Shown here: positions 22,970 through 39,239 of the stretch, piece after piece | Layout of the letters: each line of letters opens with the position of its first letter | How positions within the stretch are numbered: position 1 is the stretch's first letter | NCBI GenBank assembly: GCA_963665755.1 | Contig: OY762445.1 | Location: forward strand, 146,224-210,223 | From: a bacterium | GTDB taxonomy: Bacteria > JAAXHH01 | Length of the DNA: 64,000 bases | Direction: 5' to 3' | Position numbers and translations under genes: made by a program | The notes under the pieces: model-generated | Seen by the model: only the letters and a program-made list of their open reading frames with translations | What the model was told of the DNA's origin: nothing | Databases searched by the model: none

Positions 22970-23266
22970 GGGCGTGATTCACCGATCCGTGGGTAGTTTG
23001 TTATTTCATTATACCTGTACTGTTTGCCGCGCGAAAAACCGAACAGAAAGACCGGTGTCCGCAATCACCCGTATTTACTGGAATCGCTGTTGCATGTCAA
23101 GGGTAGAGTGGCAGACGAGAGGGGATGTTATTCAATCGAAGAAGCGGCTGATCTTTAGCAGTCGACGGAAGGCCTTTCAAGCCAGGGAGTGGACAGCAAG
23201 GCATGGCGAGTGGCAACCCGTCGACAGACAGGCTGCCTCGCAGAAGGACGGTCTGCTGTACGGAGC

Positions 23267-24451: not shown

Positions 24452-24746
24452 CGGTTTCTCCTGGTGAACATGGTGCGGTAATGATGCGTCTGAACCGACA
24501 TTACAAAATAGGGCGCTACGCCATCGGTGTACAGCAAATTCAACGCGGATCTTTCCCTGTGTGCCCCATCCCTTGTCCCGCCGATGGATATTTGATCCGA
24601 CCATGAAATCACGGACCCTGAACTCATGCCCGAAGATGCATCAGCGGAACTTTCAATAAATCGAACGAGTGCTTATTTTAGTTGGTCGCATGTTGTCACG
24701 CTCTATATTGGAATCAACTAGATCACTCCTCCCCCGGTTACGTGTT

Positions 24747-25727
24747 ATGGTTCTTGATTTCCACACCCATTTCTATACCTCCGCTTACCTTGACGAGATC
24801 GAAAAGGGAGGATACCAGGCGGTGCTGGTCAGGGATACCGACGGCAATCGCCTGCTGAAGCTGGATGGCGATTACAGCATGATCGCGCCGGGTCATTTCG
24901 ATGCCGACCGGGTGATCGAGCACATGGACCGGCATGGCGTGGAACGGCAACTCCTCACCTTTTCCATCCCGGGACTGCACGTCGAGGAGCCCGATGCCGG
25001 CCGCCGTCTCGCCCGGGTCGTGAACGAGGCTCTGGCCGAAACCGTCACCCGCCATCCCGACCGGCTGTCGGCCCTGGCCGTCCTTCCCCTGCAGGATCCG
25101 GCCGCTTCAGCGGCGGAACTGGTCCGCGCCGTGGAGTCGCTGAACCTGCGGGGCGGGCTGCTGTTCTCGAACATAAACGGCAAGTCCCCGGGGGATTACG
25201 TGTTTCACGAACTCTATGCCGCCGCGTCGACGCTGGACGTACCGCTTTTCCTGCACCCTACCAGTCCACCATCGATAAAACCATTTTTGCAGTACAGGCT
25301 TACGCCCATTGCGGGATTTCCCTTCGACACCACCCTGGCAGCCATCCAATTGGTGCTTAGCGGAACGATGGCGGCTTTCCCCGACTTGAAGATCGTACTC
25401 GGCAACCTGGGAGGGACCATCCCGTTTCTTGCGGGCCGGATCGATCAGGGGTATATTTCCTATCCCGAGGCCAGCGAAAAGCTGGACCGGCCACCGTCTG
25501 CATACCTCAGGAACATGTACTTCGAATCCGCGGGCATGCCCAGCGGCGGGGCGCTTCGCCTGGCGATCGACTTCGCCGGTGTCGATCGCGTGATGTTCGG
25601 TTCAGACTTCCCCCAGCAGATCGCCGATGTCGACCTGGGACTTAGAATCATTGAAGAACAGGGGCTGGATGAAGCGGACAGGCAGCGAATCGTCGGCCGG
25701 AACGCGGCAGGTCTTTTGAAGATATAA
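24747..25727 (+). CDS. amidohydrolase-2 family metal-dependent hydrolase (ACMSD-like TIM barrel)
   Basis: N-terminal D-x-H-x-H (LDFHTHFY) and a distal FGSDFP motif. Start ambiguous among 24669, 24690 and 24747. Confidence 0.65.
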   Translation: MVLDFHTHFYTSAYLDEIEKGGYQAVLVRDTDGNRLLKLDGDYSMIAPGHFDADRVIEHMDRHGVERQLLTFSIPGLHVEEPDAGRRLARVVNEALAETVTRHPDRLSALAVLPLQDPAASAAELVRAVESLNLRGGLLFSNINGKSPGDYVFHELYAAASTLDVPLFLHPTSPPSIKPFLQYRLTPIAGFPFDTTLAAIQLVLSGTMAAFPDLKIVLGNLGGTIPFLAGRIDQGYISYPEASEKLDRPPSAYLRNMYFESAGMPSGGALRLAIDFAGVDRVMFGSDFPQQIADVDLGLRIIEEQGLDEADRQRIVGRNAAGLLKI

Positions 25728-25748: not shown

Positions 25749-25808
25749 AAATACCGTAATGCCAGGTAAAATACCGTAATGCCAAGCAAAATACCGTAAT
25801 GCCAGGCA
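25749..25808. repeat. 3 x 20-bp AT-rich tandem direct repeat (AAATACCGTAATGCCARGYA) in the polA upstream region
   Basis: Three adjacent units read directly: aaataccgtaatgccaggta / aaataccgtaatgccaagca / aaataccgtaatgccaggca. Confidence 0.9.
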
Positions 25809-25893
25809 AACAAGCTATAACAACAACGGCCGTGGATGGTGCGGGTTGCACCCGCCGCGGATCGGTTCCCTCGAAGCCGGAGCTCTAAACCTG

Positions 25894-28669: not shown

Positions 28670-28741
28670 ACTGGAAGATGGACAGCGTTGGGAAGGTGGA
28701 CAACGACTGGAAGATGGACAGTGATCTGGAGATTCTGATCG
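28670..28741. repeat. about 3.5 x 18-bp tandem direct repeat (ACTGGAAGATGGACAGYG) between polA and the Rieske-fusion operon
   Basis: Units read directly: actggaagatggacagcg / ttgggaaggtggacaacg / actggaagatggacagtg / atctggagattctgatcg. Confidence 0.85.
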
Positions 28742-28796
28742 CAGGCAGCCCGGAAGACATCAGCGAAAATCACACAAACAGAAAGGCAAGGATTCC

Positions 28797-30587
28797 ATGA
28801 GCACAGGAAACGGTTGGATCCGGGTCGGAACTACGACCGACATAGCGCCCGGGGAATCCCGCGCCGTTAGAATCAGCGAGGGCCGCAGCGTTGCCCTCTT
28901 CAACGTCAACGGCCGGATACATGCTACCGACAACCAATGTCCCCACATGGGGTTTCCACTGACCCGCGGCGTGGTGAAGGACGGCATCCTGACGTGCGAC
29001 TGGCATGGCCGCAGTTTCGATCTGGAAGGCGGCGGCTGCTTCAATTACGAATGCGACGACCTGGAGACGTTCCCAGTCGACATTCGTGGAGATGAACTGT
29101 GGGTGCAGGCCGGGGACGCCACCTACAAGCGGCGGGACCAGCACCTGCAACTGCTCTGGGAGGGCCTGCTGAGCGGGGACTCGTGGACGATTTCGAAGGC
29201 CACTGCCCTCCTTCTGTCCGGTGGTGTTTCAGAACACGACATCGTGCAGTTGATCTTGCGCCACCTGGGCCGTCACGTCGCTTCGGAACGGGACGCGGGC
29301 GGCGGCGGCGATGTCGTTTCACTCCTGGTCTCCGGTCTTGAAGTCGGCAAAAGGTTTGACGGAGAAGACAGGCTGATGGCGTTGTCGCTGGCAGGCCGCG
29401 CAGCGTCGGGGAGGGCGTCGGAAAGGCTCGAGGTCATTACGCTGCCCCCGCCGGTCCGCTGGGATCAGATAGACGACTGGGTACGCATGTTCTCCCGAAA
29501 CATGCAGGATTTCCGGATCGAACGGTGTTTGCACACGGCCTGCGAAAACGGCCACCAGGACCATATCTTCAAATTGTTGTTCGAGTGTGCGGTGGCGCCG
29601 TACTTCCTCGGATTTTCCCGTAACGTGGCCAGCCTGGGTGATCTCGCAAGGGTGGTGGATACCTTCGGATGGGGCGAGGCGTCCGAACTGGTCTGCAACC
29701 TCGGCGCAAAGATGACGGGGCGAGGGCGCGACGAGCCGGAGCGGTTCCACCGGGATGCCGTCCGGCTGCTCACCGAACTCGCGCCTGAACTGGAATCACA
29801 TGATTACGACGGGAACACGCGCGCGGAATACGACGAGAACGCCCTCGTAGACGCCCTGTTGAGCGTCGATGTCGAGCGGTCTTTCGAAGCCGTGACACGG
29901 GTCCTGCGGGACGGCGTGGCGCTCGAGCGTCTTATCACGACCTTCGTGCTGCTCGCCGCCGATCGCATGGCGCGTACGCCGGTGAACGTCGACGCGGGGT
30001 GGGGACCGCTGTCCACCGAGTTCAACCTGGCGGCTTCCCTGCGACATGTCCACGCATACGGTGGGCCCGCTGCAGCGGCGAAGGGCCTGTACCATGCGGC
30101 CTGGCAAATTTTCGACAACCGATGGATCAATATCCCCGCACGGTCGCTCGACGAACCCCTTCCCGCCCATCGAACGGACACACCGGACGCGGCAGCCGCT
30201 TCGGATCTCATTGTCCATTCCATCAAGTCGCTGGATATCCACGGGGTGGGCGACCAGGTGGTGGGTTACCTCAACAGCGGATTCGACGGGTCGGACCTGC
30301 TCAAGGAAGTGGGACGGGCGATCCTGTGGGACGATACCAACATGGAGCTCCTTCCCACACTGCGCGTCGCGTTCAACGAATGGGAAGGTTCAGGGGGTGG
30401 CGCAGGCGGCGGAGACGCAAGCGGGGGTGGCGCAGGTGGAAAGGGCCATCCGTCCCGGTATCAGCTCCTGGTGGGACTGGTGCGCTACGCCACGGATGTG
30501 CGATTGAACAAGAACAGCATGGCCTCCATCAACACGGCCATGCGATTTTCTGAAGGCCGGACGACCGTAGAGGTGTTCGACGAATAA
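28797..30587 (+). CDS. Rieske [2Fe-2S] domain fused to an uncharacterized ~480-aa domain (paralog A)
   Basis: Rieske ligands C-P-H-M-G ... C-D-W-H-G within the first 100 aa. Remainder unassignable but shares conserved blocks with paralog B (RHxGRHVAxER, LFECAVAPYFLG, LAADRMARTPVN, GLYHAAWQ, HPSRxQLLVGL). Contains a Gly-rich insert. Confidence 0.8.
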   Translation: MSTGNGWIRVGTTTDIAPGESRAVRISEGRSVALFNVNGRIHATDNQCPHMGFPLTRGVVKDGILTCDWHGRSFDLEGGGCFNYECDDLETFPVDIRGDELWVQAGDATYKRRDQHLQLLWEGLLSGDSWTISKATALLLSGGVSEHDIVQLILRHLGRHVASERDAGGGGDVVSLLVSGLEVGKRFDGEDRLMALSLAGRAASGRASERLEVITLPPPVRWDQIDDWVRMFSRNMQDFRIERCLHTACENGHQDHIFKLLFECAVAPYFLGFSRNVASLGDLARVVDTFGWGEASELVCNLGAKMTGRGRDEPERFHRDAVRLLTELAPELESHDYDGNTRAEYDENALVDALLSVDVERSFEAVTRVLRDGVALERLITTFVLLAADRMARTPVNVDAGWGPLSTEFNLAASLRHVHAYGGPAAAAKGLYHAAWQIFDNRWINIPARSLDEPLPAHRTDTPDAAAASDLIVHSIKSLDIHGVGDQVVGYLNSGFDGSDLLKEVGRAILWDDTNMELLPTLRVAFNEWEGSGGGAGGGDASGGGAGGKGHPSRYQLLVGLVRYATDVRLNKNSMASINTAMRFSEGRTTVEVFDE

Positions 30588-30611
30588 CGAACAACGGAGA
30601 GGTAACGGAAT

Positions 30612-32363
30612 ATGTCAACGGAACAAAACGGATTCGTACGGGTGGCGGCAACGGACGAAGTGGTGGACGGCAAGCCCAAGGCCGTCAAGGTGGAGGGAAG
30701 GAGCATCGCCCTCTTCAAGCATAACGGGTCGGTATTCGCCACGGACAATCAATGTCCGCACATGGGATACCCGCTCACGAGAGGGCGCGTTCGCAACGGC
30801 GTGCTGACTTGTGACTGGCACGGCTGGAGTTACGACCTCGGCGGCGGCGGTTGCTTCACCGGTGGGTGCGATGACCTGGAGACTTTTCCGGTCGAGGTAC
30901 GAAACGGCGACGTGTTCGTGAACGTTAGCGAAGGCGGATCCAAACGGTCGGACGCACACTTCCTGCTCTTGAAGGAAGGACTCTATTCAACGGATCAGTG
31001 GACCATCTCGAAGGCCGTGGCCATCATGCTGGCCCGGGGCGTGTCCGAGACGGACACGTTGAACCTCATCATCCGGCACGGCGGCCGTCACGTCGCGACT
31101 GAACGGGGCGCCAACGATGGTGGTGGAGAGGTCTCCGATTTCATCAATGGGATCAAGGTGGCCCGACAGTACGAGAGCGACGACCGGATCATCCCGCTGA
31201 CCTTTGCCGCCCACGGGCTATCCGGTCGCGCGGGGGACCGGCCGAGCATCCAGCGGTTGCCCGATCCGATCACCTGGGAGAAACTCGAGGGATGGATCCG
31301 GGTGTTCTCCACAGACAAGCAATGGGAAGGCATCGAGAAGTGCCTGATTACCGCCCGCCGGCTGGGCGGACACGATGGCGAGATCCTGCCGCTGCTCTAC
31401 GAATGCGCCGTGGCCCCGCATTTTCTCGGCAATTCGAACAACCTGCTCAACATCGGCTACATCGCGGAAGTGCTCGAGGAATTCGGCTGGGACGAAGCAG
31501 AGGAACTGGTCTGCAACCTCTCGGCCAAGATCCTGGGACAGGAGCGGGGACTGCCCGACGAGATCAGGCAGTCGGCCATCGACCGGTTCATCGCCGACAC
31601 CGAAACGCTGGATTCCATCGGCGACAGACCATCTGACGGTTCCGACGCAGCCTTCGACGAAGACGCCTTCGCGGAGGGTCTGGTAAGCGGCGAAATCGGA
31701 CCGACCTTCGGCGTGGTTACCCAGGCGCTCAAAGACGGCGTTTCTATCGAGCGCATCGTGACGACCATGGTGGTGCTCGCAGCGGACCGCATGGCGCGCA
31801 CGCCGGTTAACATGAACCCGGGATGGGGAGGCCTGGTCCGCGAGATGATGATGGCCAGCGCAATCCGAAAGGCTTTGAGGTACGGTGGGCACCGAGTTGC
31901 CGCCCAGGGTCTGTACCACGTCGCCTGGCAATTCTACGGCGACCGGTGGCTGAATATCACCCATCGTCCGTTGTCCGAGTCGCGTGGAGATCTGCAGCCG
32001 GGAAGCGCGGACGAGGCCGAAGCGATCGAAGGCGTCGTTTCATCCATTGAGCAGATCCAGATCAGGGAAATCGGAAGACAGACCCGGGACTACCTGCGGT
32101 CGGGGTACTCGGGCGACGCGTTGCTCCGGGAACTCGGTCTCGTGATCCTCAAGGACGACAACGGCCGGAACATCCTGTCCACGCTGCGCACGATCTTCGA
32201 CGAATGGACCTGGTGCGAAGATCACCCTTCGCGCAACCAGTTGCTGGTCGGCCTCGCACGCTGGGCCACCGACGTACGCCGCGCCACGGGAAGCCAGTCT
32301 GCCGCCGCTACCGCCCTGCGATTCGCCAAGGGACAGACCGCGGTGGACTTGTACGAGGCGTAA
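30612..32363 (+). CDS. Rieske [2Fe-2S] domain fused to an uncharacterized ~480-aa domain (paralog B)
   Basis: GGAGAGG SD. The same Rieske motifs (CPHMGYPL ... CDWHGWSYD) and the same conserved C-terminal blocks as paralog A. 24-bp gap after paralog A. Confidence 0.8.
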   Translation: MSTEQNGFVRVAATDEVVDGKPKAVKVEGRSIALFKHNGSVFATDNQCPHMGYPLTRGRVRNGVLTCDWHGWSYDLGGGGCFTGGCDDLETFPVEVRNGDVFVNVSEGGSKRSDAHFLLLKEGLYSTDQWTISKAVAIMLARGVSETDTLNLIIRHGGRHVATERGANDGGGEVSDFINGIKVARQYESDDRIIPLTFAAHGLSGRAGDRPSIQRLPDPITWEKLEGWIRVFSTDKQWEGIEKCLITARRLGGHDGEILPLLYECAVAPHFLGNSNNLLNIGYIAEVLEEFGWDEAEELVCNLSAKILGQERGLPDEIRQSAIDRFIADTETLDSIGDRPSDGSDAAFDEDAFAEGLVSGEIGPTFGVVTQALKDGVSIERIVTTMVVLAADRMARTPVNMNPGWGGLVREMMMASAIRKALRYGGHRVAAQGLYHVAWQFYGDRWLNITHRPLSESRGDLQPGSADEAEAIEGVVSSIEQIQIREIGRQTRDYLRSGYSGDALLRELGLVILKDDNGRNILSTLRTIFDEWTWCEDHPSRNQLLVGLARWATDVRRATGSQSAAATALRFAKGQTAVDLYEA

Positions 32364-32389: not shown

Positions 32390-33690
32390 ATGGGCATGGA
32401 CGCCGATCCGTCTGACAAGCGTCTTTACGAACGCTATCATCAAGACCCCGACGAGGCCGACCGGATACTGTTCGGCCGCCGGACTCACCCGGACCGTCGC
32501 GGTTTCCTTAAGAATGCGGGCCTGGCAACCATGGGCGCGTTGGTCGGCGCCGCGATTCCCTTTCATCGCAACGTCCCTGCCCATTTCATTCCGGTCGTGC
32601 TCGCCGCAGAGAACACCATTCAGGGCAAGGACGGCCTGACGGTCCTCAATGATCGCCCCATGTGCGCGGAAACCCCGCCACACCTCCTCGACGACGCCAT
32701 AACGCCCACCGCAAGGCATTTTGTTCGCAACAACGGGTTAGTTCCCGAGGATCTGGACGCCTCGCGCTGGAAGCTTGCGATCGACGGACTGGTCGACAGT
32801 CCGTTGATACTCAACCTCGAGGATCTTGAAGGCCGGTTCGAGGTCGTCACCCGGGCGTTGACCCTGGAATACGCGGGAAACGGCCGGGCATTTTTTAACC
32901 CGAAGACGAAAGGCGAACAGTGGACCTACGGCGCGGTGGCCTGCGCTGAATGGACGGGGGTGCGGCTATCCGACGTACTGACGGCCGCCGGAATGAAGCG
33001 CGAAGCAGTCTACACCGCGCACTACGGCGCAGATACCCACCTTTCCGGTGTGGAGGGCCGGACTTCCCATCTCCCGCGGCGTACCGATCGAAAAGGCCAT
33101 GGATGGACACAGCCTCATCGCCTTCGCCCAGAACAGCCGACCGATACACCCGATGAACGGCGGCCCGTTGCGCCTGATCATACCGGGATGGCTCGGGTCA
33201 TGTTCCCATAAATGGCTGAACCGCATAGAGATACGGGACCAGGTGCACGACGGGCCCAAGATGACAGGCACCTCGTATCGATTGCCGCGACGGGGCATCG
33301 AACCCGGCGAGATCGTGGACGAGAAAGACTTCCAAATCATAGAAAGCATGCCGGTGAAGTCGCTCATCACGCACCCGGCGACGGGGCACAGATCGAATGA
33401 CAGTTCAGTGGAAATAAGGGGCCATGCGGACAGGTAAGGGGCGCGTCTCCGCGGTTGATCTTTCGGTCGACTTCGGGGCGACCTGGAAGCGAGCGACGCT
33501 GGAGGAACCGGTCAACGCCTTCGCCTGGCAGAACTGGCGCGCTTCGTTTTCGTTGCCGCAGGATGGGTATTACGAGGTTTGGGCGAGGGCCACCGACTCT
33601 CTGGGCGTCAGCCAGCCCCACGCCATCGCGTGGAATCCGGGTGGCTACCTAAACAACGCCATGCACCGCGTCGCGGTGTACGTGGGGTAA
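32390..33690 (+). pseudogene. sulfite-oxidase-family molybdopterin oxidoreductase (Tat-exported), disrupted by two +1 frameshifts
   Basis: Twin-arginine motif RRGFLKNAGLATMGALVG. The Oxidored_molyb region reads in frame 1 to about 33050 (..HYGADTHLSG), continues in frame 2 (LPISRGVPIEKAMDGHSLIAFAQN..GGPLRLIIPGW) to about 33425, then frame 3 carries the Mo-co dimerisation domain (GKGRVSAVDLSVDFGATWKRA..WNPGGY). Confidence 0.6.
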
Positions 33691-33828: not shown

Positions 33829-33930
33829 ATGTTGCGTGTTGTTTTCTACAAGACTGAAACTGGACGCGAGCCAGTGCGTGACAGGACCTACAGCCTGCAA
33901 TTTCGCGATCGGCAAAGCTGGGAGAAGCGA
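33829..33930 (+). pseudogene. N-terminal remnant of a Gp49-like/HigB-type toxin
   Basis: MLRVVFYKTETGREPVRD matches the conserved N-terminus of the phage Gp49-like RelE/ParE toxin family from memory. The rest of the about 110-aa toxin is missing and the frame runs into the antitoxin gene. Confidence 0.35.
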
Positions 33931-33934
33931 ATAG

Positions 33935-34222
33935 ATGACTATAGATACCCAACATGTTGGTGGCAACTTCGATGGATATTTGAAAGAAGAAGGTCTAATT
34001 GAGGAAGTAGAACAAGTAGCAGCAAAGCGTGCAGTTGCGTTACAAGTAAACCAATTCATGTCGAATCAGGGACTGAGCAAGACCGAAATGGCCCGACGTA
34101 TGCACACGAGTCGTGCCTCACTGGATCGCCTGCTGGATCCGGAGAATGGATCTGTCACACTGCAAACCCTGGAACGGGCGGCCGATGCACTGGGACGGCG
34201 CTTGCATATCTCGCTGGTTTGA
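33935..34222 (+). CDS. XRE-family HTH antitoxin (HigA-like)
   Basis: 95-aa protein with an HTH core (LSKTEMARRMHTSRASLDRLL), the typical partner of Gp49-like toxins. Low-GC context. Confidence 0.6.
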   Translation: MTIDTQHVGGNFDGYLKEEGLIEEVEQVAAKRAVALQVNQFMSNQGLSKTEMARRMHTSRASLDRLLDPENGSVTLQTLERAADALGRRLHISLV

Positions 34223-35223: not shown

Positions 35224-36204
35224 TCAGCCGTCGTTATTCGTCTTCAGAAATACGTTCTCGGATTCCCTTTCCCAGGTTTCGTTGTAGACCAGTGGCCTCG
35301 GCCTGCGTGGCGGGTAATCCGGCGGGGGATTATCCGGTTCGTTCAGTTCCAGGCGGTCGCGTCCCCGGGGCGCTTCGTACCAGTGCTTCTCCCGTTCGGC
35401 CGCTTCGATCTCCCTGCGGAGGATGAACTCCGCGTGATCGAATCCGGAGATCGCCGCGTCCGCCAGAAACACGCGATGCACCTCGCGGCCGTCCCAGGTT
35501 GCCAGATCCGGCAGGACCACGGGGCCCGTGCAGACCTGAAACTCGGCGTCTTCCTCGTTAATATTGATCAGATCCACGGGAAATTCAAGGGTAACCCGCA
35601 TGTTCCGGTCCGCCTGGCCTGCTTGGTCCGTTTGGTCCGCCTGGCCTGCTTGGTCCGTTGGGTCCGTTTGGTCCGCCTGGTCTGCTTGGCCCGTTTGGCC
35701 CGCCTGGTCTGCTTGACCCGGCTGGTCCGGATCATGGCAGTCGGTCCAGGCGATCCTGCCATTCATGAGATCCCGGTTGATCGTCGCGTCCACTACGGCC
35801 CGCGCGTCAGTCAGGGTTTCCTCGGAATCATACTGCCTGATATCGATTTCGTGGGCCTGGAACTGTTTTTCAAGCGGAGTACCCCTGTATTCGGCGGCCT
35901 CGTTACTCGGTCTTCGCGATATAGGGATGCTCTGACTTCGGCTAAACGCCATGCGCCATTCGTCGCTGGGAATCTGAAAGAGGTTTCGGCGGGCAATCGT
36001 GTATTCCGAGCGACACGGAGCGCCCAGGTATATTTTGGTACGGTGTCCCGAGTCGTCCTCCACGGTACAGGCCGCCTCGAGGTGGAACCGCACCTGGTAG
36101 GCCTGTCCCGGCACCCCGACAAAACCGCCCGTATACTTGAAAACCGGATCGGGTTTCCACGGCCAGGATTTCCAGTGGAAAGAAGAGCGATGGAATGCGA
36201 TCAT
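35224..36204 (-). CDS. hypothetical protein with internal (DQAGQAD)n low-complexity linker
   Basis: 326-aa ORF of balanced composition. The antisense 475-aa ORF is Arg/Val/Leu junk. 40-bp gap to the downstream PhyH gene on the same strand. Confidence 0.5.
35606..35730. repeat. about 4.7 x 27-bp tandem repeat (GGTCCGCCTGGCCTGCTTGGTCCGTTT) inside the CDS 35224-36204
   Basis: Read directly. On the coding (minus) strand it encodes (QTDQAGQAD)-type nonapeptide repeats. Confidence 0.85.
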
Positions 36205-39182: not shown

Positions 39183-39239
39183 CCGGCGTAACGCGTAACT
39201 CCGCGTAACGCGTACTCCGCGTCCGCTGTTCGGTCGTGA

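Follow-up and report, generated by a model that had tools for sequence, protein, structure and literature searches.

The window analysed here is a 64,000-nucleotide stretch of bacterial DNA (GTDB lineage JAAXHH01; assembly GCA_963665755.1, contig OY762445.1, positions 146,224 to 210,223 of the forward strand) that shares ~99% identity with OX638340.1, the chromosome of an uncultured member of the Gemmatimonadota. It carries two adjacent genes, A and B, whose products each join an N-terminal Rieske [2Fe-2S] domain to a large all-α domain. A and B very probably make up a heteromeric Rieske redox protein whose large domain has the fold of the non-heme-iron dioxygenase BTG13; that this protein is also a catalytic oxidoreductase is a prediction to which we give, at best, an even chance. 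The locus brings into view a very large bacterial superfamily, so far without a name, in which a Rieske cluster is built into the same protein as a BTG13-fold domain. In the paired A/B branch the pocket of that fold appears to have been re-lined.

An Ancient, Co-inherited Gene Pair

An earlier reading of the sequence alone had described two tandem paralogues of about 590 residues on one strand, separated by 24 bp. The two genes are indeed so arranged, in the same frame, and are paralogous, with 47% identity between the full-length products (BLASTP, 518 bits, E = 0). A plain or recent tandem duplication does not describe them, since they form an ancient, co-inherited A→B pair whose members are conserved asymmetrically. 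Full-length homologues number in the hundreds and are 55–99% identical. Those of B mostly hold a length of ~583 residues, and the lengths of A-type proteins vary (about 577–598 residues).

The search took one genome per species and recovered a relative in 153 species genomes. Taxonomy was taken from the best 80 of these 153, all of which are metagenome-assembled genomes of Gemmatimonadota, Latescibacterota, Poribacteria and Acidobacteriota, many of them from sponges; among the genomes retrieved, the paired branch occurs only in these uncultured groups. Every locus with enough flanking sequence (about 85, from at least four phyla) holds exactly one A-type gene upstream of exactly one B-type gene on the same strand. 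The gap is usually below 100 bp, or the genes overlap (by 8 bp in locus L001), an arrangement in other lineages that is consistent with co-translation of the two proteins. Within Poribacteria there are subclades in which 1–6 kb of inserted genes, either an ankyrin gene or a 257-residue FGE-sulfatase-like gene, split A from B.

The neighbour-joining tree resolves A and B as reciprocally monophyletic clades that mirror each other in their internal topology. Across phyla, A-type proteins are on average 62% identical to one another, B-type proteins 66%, and proteins of different type 48%. This is the pattern expected from one old duplication followed by co-inheritance, which would be the signature of a heteromer. 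Because the clades are reciprocally monophyletic, the trees mirror each other and the A→B pairing is strict, A and B are predicted to work as subunits of a single complex.

The Rieske Domains

The first ~100 residues of both proteins had been assigned to a Rieske domain, and the Pfam model PF00355 finds it in each, with 60.5 bits for A and 71.7 bits for B against a cut-off of 20.3. Both domains contain the CPHMG...CDWHG signature, in which C48, H50, C67 and H70 are the predicted cluster ligands of A and of B alike. All four ligands are 100% conserved in the 110 A-type and 110 B-type sequences from which the conservation figures of this study were taken. Two extra cysteines, C81 and C86, lie in the Rieske domains of A and B; among the A-types C81 is kept in 99% and C86 in 100%. 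By the tests of threshold, ligand set and predicted fold, A and B are bona fide Rieske-domain proteins.

More specific names do not fit them. All NCBIfam scores of A and B fall under the curated cut-offs. The nitrite reductase subunit NirD (TIGR02378) was considered and rejected, as the two proteins score 53.6 and 50.2 bits against its cut-off of 74.65 and no NirB gene adjoins them. These results give grounds to replace the 'nitrite reductase/ring-hydroxylating ferredoxin subunit' labels now attached to ~590-residue proteins of this kind. Neither A nor B carries a recognizable export signal: no hydrophobic 19-mer is present (maximum Kyte-Doolittle value 1.3) and no twin-arginine motif, in line with the earlier description of both proteins as lacking a signal peptide.

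The C-terminal Domain and Its Superfamily

The ~480 residues that follow had been described as carrying no motif of a known family, as distinct from the Ring_hydroxyl_A catalytic domain, and as containing blocks conserved between the paralogues, and all three points hold. Residues 110–590 of A and B have no match in Pfam, NCBIfam or the PDB sequences, searched as single sequences and, for PDB, also with three profiles. A regular-expression search of A and B found no 2-His-1-carboxylate motif of the form E-x3-D-x2-H-x4-H or D-x2-H-x3-5-H, Pfam places no Ring_hydroxyl_A match past residue 105 of either protein, and the structural model of this region is all-α. The conserved blocks RHxGRHVA[ST]ER, L[FY]ECAVAP[YH]FLG, LAADRMARTPVN, GLYH[AV]AWQ and HPSRxQLLVGL were each found in both A and B. 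The proposal of an undescribed, conserved Rieske-linked family also stands, in that no curated model and no specific name covers it; the flanking elements named beside it do not belong to the system.

The AlphaFold2 (AF2) model of B, made from an 80-sequence alignment, reached a predicted local distance difference test score (pLDDT) of 86.3 and a predicted template modelling score (pTM) of 0.84. It presents a Rieske β-domain and then ~22 helices, with an all-α structure from residue 115 onwards. The top 50 matches of a Foldseek search of the model against PDB are Rieske matches only, without BTG13 or its relative PaD, so the resemblance of B by itself to these two enzymes is a fold-level lead only.

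A longer chain of comparison reaches the same fold. Searching 1.84 billion representatives with a profile of the C-terminal domain brought out a wider superfamily, which comprises 458 clusters at 50% identity. One branch, D1, consists of distant Rieske fusions of ~590 residues, and another, D2, of Rieske-less forms of ~450 residues; whether the C-terminal domain ever stands without a Rieske domain, a check proposed in the sequence-only reading, is thereby answered in the affirmative for distant relatives. Homology between the A/B core and D1 is supported by hhalign (probability 99.8%, E 1.8e-30, 446 columns) and by hmmsearch (E 1e-20 to 1e-52). D1 in turn gives a strong fold match to BTG13 and PaD. 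The sequence link from A/B to D1 and the fold match from D1 to BTG13/PaD, taken together, place the C-terminal domain, as far as models can, in the BTG13 fold class.

D1 is very large, as all 8000 of the 8000 scored candidates were significant, and it includes Thermomicrobiales and Nitrolancea proteins that are named only 'Rieske (2Fe-2S) protein'. It is uncharacterised, so there is no function to transfer from it to A and B. In two syntenic, Chloroflexota-like D1 loci (L090 and L092) a gene for a DAO-family flavin adenine dinucleotide (FAD) oxidoreductase lies directly downstream of the D1 fusion. LigB, P450 or glyoxalase genes are found near other D1 loci, and no partner is consistent across the five D1 loci examined.

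Rarer architectures occur elsewhere in the superfamily. P0312 (843 residues) joins an extracytoplasmic function (ECF) sigma-70 factor (r2/r4) to the Rieske and C-terminal domains, and P0291 (734 residues) adds an adenylate/guanylate cyclase domain (Guanylate_cyc) after them. The C-terminal domain is combined with WD40 in P0347 (761 residues) and with a 3-keto-disaccharide hydrolase in P0369 (659 residues). The 508-residue Rieske-less entries of the core family (for example P0010 and P0022), which start at the internal Met76, look like truncated gene calls rather than genuine forms without the Rieske domain. The MgsA_C family (PF12002) was considered and rejected: its matches are weak (best E 0.023), are limited to three members out of 48 and come without an AAA+ domain, and they reflect a local resemblance of fold only.

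A Candidate Pocket and Its Asymmetry

The 4-His-1-carboxy-Lys class to which BTG13 belongs was described only in 2022 and consists of stand-alone, mainly fungal enzymes. BTG13 and PaD are all-α DUF4243 non-heme-iron dioxygenases in which four histidine residues together with a (carboxylated) lysine hold the iron (PMC12173810; PMC11371914). The iron ligands of PaD are H63, H166, H317, H394 and K397 (PMC11371914).

D1 retains a set of residues of like composition. H275, H282, K289, H418 and H528 are invariant or near-invariant in D1, along with H/D444 and Q531. Four histidines and one lysine are the composition of the BTG13 site, and the order and spacing of the histidines resemble those of H166, H317 and H394 in PaD. 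The A/B family has exchanged all five. By MAFFT and hhalign, the columns of D1 H275, H282, K289, H418 and H528 are occupied in B by P269, N276, Y283, R410 and N520, and across the core family by P, N/R/D, Y/D, R/T/M and N/E/Q/D, respectively. The sole position that the two groups share is D1 H444, which is H436 in B.

A different set of residues is conserved in the A/B family, namely C244, C301, K306, E350, E411, H436, W439, H538 and R541, and the same set is found in the Rieske-less D2. H116, E146, H156, H160 and the full C81/C86 pair, C86 especially, occur specifically in the core, or in the core together with an intermediate group, and K134, E242, R393 and W405 are kept across the whole superfamily. 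Positions 411 and 436 fall on or next to the D1-aligned positions 410 and 436, which suggests that one and the same cavity is involved. The conserved cysteines, histidines, lysine and glutamates are predicted to form a single pocket that would bind a metal or cofactor. At about 45 polar positions both paralogues keep the same residue with a conservation of 95% or more, and this speaks for a specific site of binding or catalysis.

Conservation of the set is uneven between the subunits. H160 is present in 100% of B-types and 65% of A-types, and H436 in 99% and 79%. C301 is kept in 97% of B-types, and its place is taken by phenylalanine in 83% of A-types; C535 is invariant in B-types (100%) and variable in A-types. 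With the full set in B and a degenerate one in A, the pattern is that expected of a heteromer in which B would keep the whole functional site.

Sequence Features and Flanking Genes

The features of the locus are collected in Table 1. The probable ribosome-binding bases of gene A are the sole invariant upstream bases in the A leaders of six relatives. Within gene A, a short tandem repeat encodes a Gly-rich insertion near residues 531–548, just before the HPSR motif. B is without this insertion, which looks like a lineage-specific loop expansion.

Table 1. Features of the A/B locus, in window coordinates.
Feature	Positions	Strand	Remarks
18-bp direct repeat, CTGGAAGATGGACAGYG-like	28673-28721		polA-A intergenic; 2.7 copies, 77% matches, degenerate
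GAAAGG, probable ribosome-binding site of gene A	28781-28786	+	10 nt before ATG
Gene A	28797-30587	+	ORF (open reading frame), 596 aa; A-type subunit, Rieske + all-α domain
Rieske [2Fe-2S] domain of A (aa ~7-105)	28815-29111	+	PF00355 E 1.5e-16
All-α C-terminal domain of A (aa 110-596)	29124-30584	+	
15-bp tandem repeat GGGGGTGGCGCAAGC, 2.8 copies	30393-30434		inside gene A; encodes Gly-rich insertion GSGGGAGGGDASGGGAGGKG
GGAGAGG, Shine-Dalgarno-like	30596-30602	+	in 24-bp A-B spacer, 9 nt before B ATG
Gene B	30612-32363	+	ORF, 583 aa; B-type subunit, Rieske + all-α domain
Rieske [2Fe-2S] domain of B (aa ~8-105)	30633-30926	+	PF00355 E 4.7e-20
All-α C-terminal domain of B (aa 110-583)	30939-32360	+	BTG13/PaD-like fold, predicted
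SO-family molybdoenzyme gene	32390-33690	+	Oxidored_molyb + Mo-co_dimer, Tat (twin-arginine translocation) signal RRGFLK

No neighbour beyond A and B themselves is conserved across lineages in an all-against-all clustering of the neighbouring ORFs. An ECF sigma factor was rejected as a conserved neighbour; the cluster is heterogeneous and chained by single linkage, and its genes vary in distance and orientation, in keeping with chance in genomes that are rich in sigma factors.

The sequence-only reading had placed the pair between an upstream 18-bp repeat array and a broken SO-family molybdoenzyme gene, and had proposed a check of their co-occurrence with it. Both elements exist, and the molybdoenzyme gene is broken: it is split over three frames by two indels (+1 G at 33055 and -2 GT at 33428) relative to intact 433-residue orthologues, which occur in 99%-identical relatives. 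A pseudogene and an error of assembly are the two readings of this, and the adjacent A and B are untouched. Neither element is part of the system: both are local to a lineage, and the molybdoenzyme would be exported by a Tat signal of a kind that A and B lack. It is in the Gemmatimonadota clade only that the SO-family gene follows B, and 91%-identical relatives and other phyla are without it; on these grounds, together with its Tat signal and its frameshifts in the window, it was rejected as a partner. The repeat was likewise rejected as a conserved operator, being degenerate and confined to the three nearest relatives (the named carriers are the window, L003 and L010).

Upstream of the repeat lies polA. 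In L004 and L024 the region between polA and A is ~35 bp, and because it is so short, A and B may be co-transcribed with polA in relatives of this kind. A 20-bp tandem repeat (3.1 copies) lies upstream of polA in the window, at 25749-25810. Relative to both near-identical relatives, single-base indels are found at 24616, 25121-25136 and 25893, which could be sequencing or assembly errors or real frameshifts; the one at 25893 falls at the 5' end of polA, a gene with an ORF of 936 residues in the window and one called at 920 residues in L003.

The FGE-sulfatase, EgtB-like, glyoxalase and ankyrin genes that stand beside or between A and B were rejected as general partners, as they are restricted to Poribacteria subclades. 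The listed loci of the subclade with an FGE-like gene between A and B are L006-L009, L047, L048, L052, L053, L056, L058, L060 and L062. The order there, on one strand, is an EgtB-like gene (DinB_2 + FGE-sulfatase), further on a glyoxalase gene followed by A, and, after other sequence, the 257-residue FGE-sulfatase-like gene and then B. In most of these loci the end of the FGE-like gene lies ~100 bp ahead of B, and the gene is a possible lineage-specific accessory partner. Another Poribacteria subclade has a 444-residue ankyrin-repeat gene between A and B.

Further differences from close relatives are scattered over the window. About 290 bp of intergenic sequence at 22973-23260 is absent from the 99%-identical L003 and L010 and may be a small insertion or a mobile fragment. 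At ~33883-33957, upstream of a 95-residue helix-turn-helix (HTH) gene at 33935-34222, relatives carry ~300 bp more; the extra sequence and the HTH_37-like, antitoxin-type gene suggest that a partner gene, perhaps a toxin, has been deleted in the window strain. Within the minus-strand ORF at 35224-36204, a 9/27/63-bp tandem repeat at 35607-35729 encodes a low-complexity stretch of the (D/T)Q(A/T)GQ type; its copy number differs from that in L003 and L010 (indels at 35619, 35656 and 35702), as in a protein repeat of variable length. A 17-bp repeat (2.2 copies) at 39186-39222 also shows several indels relative to relatives.

Proposed Function and Alternatives

The explanation that best accounts for these observations is an oxidoreductase that is heteromeric, is fed by its Rieske clusters and has the BTG13-fold pocket in a remodelled form, a reading that we regard as evenly balanced between right and wrong. 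A and B would pair as subunits of an iron-sulfur redox protein that is soluble, cytoplasmic and obligately heteromeric, each subunit consisting of a ferredoxin/oxygenase-type Rieske [2Fe-2S] domain fused to a ~470-residue all-α domain of the DUF4243 fold. An external reductase or ferredoxin would reduce the Rieske clusters, from which electrons would move on, probably by crossing the A/B interface if the likeness to Rieske oxygenases extends that far, into a remodelled pocket for a metal or cofactor. The pocket would be functional mainly in B, leaving A as chiefly a structural and electron-relay partner, and B would use it to transform a small molecule in an O2-dependent reaction or another redox reaction.

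A bolder form of this proposal is possible, if doubtful. The heteromer would found a structurally new class of Rieske-dependent oxygenase or oxidoreductase, with a BTG13-fold module, a C244/C301/K306/E350/E411/H436/H538 centre unseen in characterised enzymes, two on-board Rieske clusters and a reaction specific to uncultured sponge and soil phyla.

Several results weigh against a Rieske-fed oxidoreductase of the BTG13 fold. The questin oxidase model PF14027 (Questin_oxidase), the family of BTG13, GedK and PaD, has no match at E ≤ 10 in 48 diverse members of the superfamily, and the PDB sequences 7y3w and 8z4q of that family are not recovered at E ≤ 10 by any of the profiles A2, A4 and A7. Neither A/B nor D1 could be tied to them by a sequence method. 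In the Pfam sense A and B lie outside the DUF4243 family, despite the shared fold. They are without the residues of the BTG13 composition, so catalysis may have been lost. No reductase, transporter or pathway gene is conserved beside the pair, hence the neighbourhood offers no clue to a substrate. Finally, the signalling fusions of rare distant relatives, with an ECF sigma factor in one and a nucleotide cyclase in the other, hint at sensing roles in parts of the superfamily.

A redox or O2 sensor, or a regulatory module, in which the Rieske cluster, alone or together with a ligand site in the helical domain, would sense redox state and the protein would act by protein-protein interaction and have no catalysis, would agree with the fusion of the distant members P0312 and P0291 to signalling domains, with the loss of the D1 4-His-1-Lys set from A and B, and with the lack of a conserved metabolic neighbour. 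However, A and B have no output domain of their own, no regulator consistently adjoins them in the about 85 loci, and the signalling fusions are two single representative clusters of a distant branch. The very high conservation of the pair, which keeps 62–66% identity between phyla and has invariant polar residues by the dozen, also speaks against a sensor, and we consider one improbable.

It is also unlikely that A and B are dedicated electron-transfer or docking proteins, in which a Rieske ferredoxin is joined to a helical adaptor for a separate enzyme such as the SO-family molybdoenzyme or another oxygenase. The molybdoenzyme gene accompanies the pair in one lineage only, is missing from 91%-identical relatives and is frameshifted in the window while A and B are intact; its product would be periplasmic by the RRGFLK signal, and A and B carry no signal. 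No other partner is conserved. A 470-residue domain with ~45 conserved polar positions would, moreover, be excessive for an adaptor.

An ordinary member of the DUF4243/questin-oxidase family, that is, a BTG13-type 4-His-1-carboxy-Lys dioxygenase with a Rieske domain added at its N-terminus, is very hard to reconcile with the failure of PF14027 and of the 7y3w/8z4q profile searches and with the substitution of all five D1 residues in A and B. Mis-framed or spurious ORFs, a general risk in DNA of 60% GC where several antisense ORFs overlap the A/B region and the condition under which the earlier reading would have fallen, are refuted by the hundreds of full-length homologues, the Pfam Rieske matches, the confident AF2 models and the complete lack of indels in gene A or gene B relative to 99%-identical relatives.

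If the predicted oxidoreductase is indeed catalytic, it would bring to O2 activation or redox chemistry an architecture that is new, as well as a handle on the metabolism of sponge symbionts and soil bacteria. It would also be a natural experiment in the remodelling of a metal site inside a fixed scaffold.

Comparison with Known Systems

To our knowledge, Rieske-dependent oxygenases use essentially one catalytic fold, the START/Bet v 1-like fold, with few exceptions. The alpha subunits of Rieske non-heme iron oxygenases such as NDO, KshA, CntA and SxtT resemble A and B in their plan, with an N-terminal Rieske domain of the same subtype (CxH...CxxHGW-like) followed by a larger C-terminal domain. 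As in these oxygenases, the cluster of one subunit would plausibly feed the metal site of its neighbour in the A/B complex. Unlike theirs, the C-terminal domain of A and B is all-α in the models and not START/Bet v 1-like. The Rieske domain is, in addition, present on both of two paralogous subunits, in contrast to the α3 or α3β3 assembly of the oxygenases. Rv3818 was considered as a characterised relative and rejected, as it is NamH, a different Rieske fusion.

The best matches of residues 1–105 in both sequence and fold are the Rieske ferredoxins BphF, NDO ferredoxin and T4moC, together with NirD. These are stand-alone proteins of ~100–110 residues, whereas A and B add the C81/C86 pair and a 470-residue domain. 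Also among the nearest known systems are the MgsA/RarA C-terminal domain (PF12002), by its local likeness of fold, and clamp-loader domain III.

D1 proteins, of which P0277 (~600 residues) is an example, share with A and B the two-domain architecture, the length and residues K134, E242, R393 and W405. D1 genes are single, have variable neighbours and keep the 4-His-1-Lys set, whereas A and B are paired and have that set replaced. BTG13 and PaD stand further away, as biosynthetic enzymes, stand-alone and mostly from fungi, whose hydroquinone substrates come from a separate reductase, in contrast to a pair of proteins with Rieske domains fused to each. No paper was found on this combination of a Rieske domain and a helical domain, and the BTG13 review makes no mention of Rieske fusions or of bacterial forms. 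Rieske-fed redox proteins and the BTG13 fold were each already known; what is new here is their union in one architecture, the pairing of A with B and a pocket that appears to have been remodelled within the shared fold.

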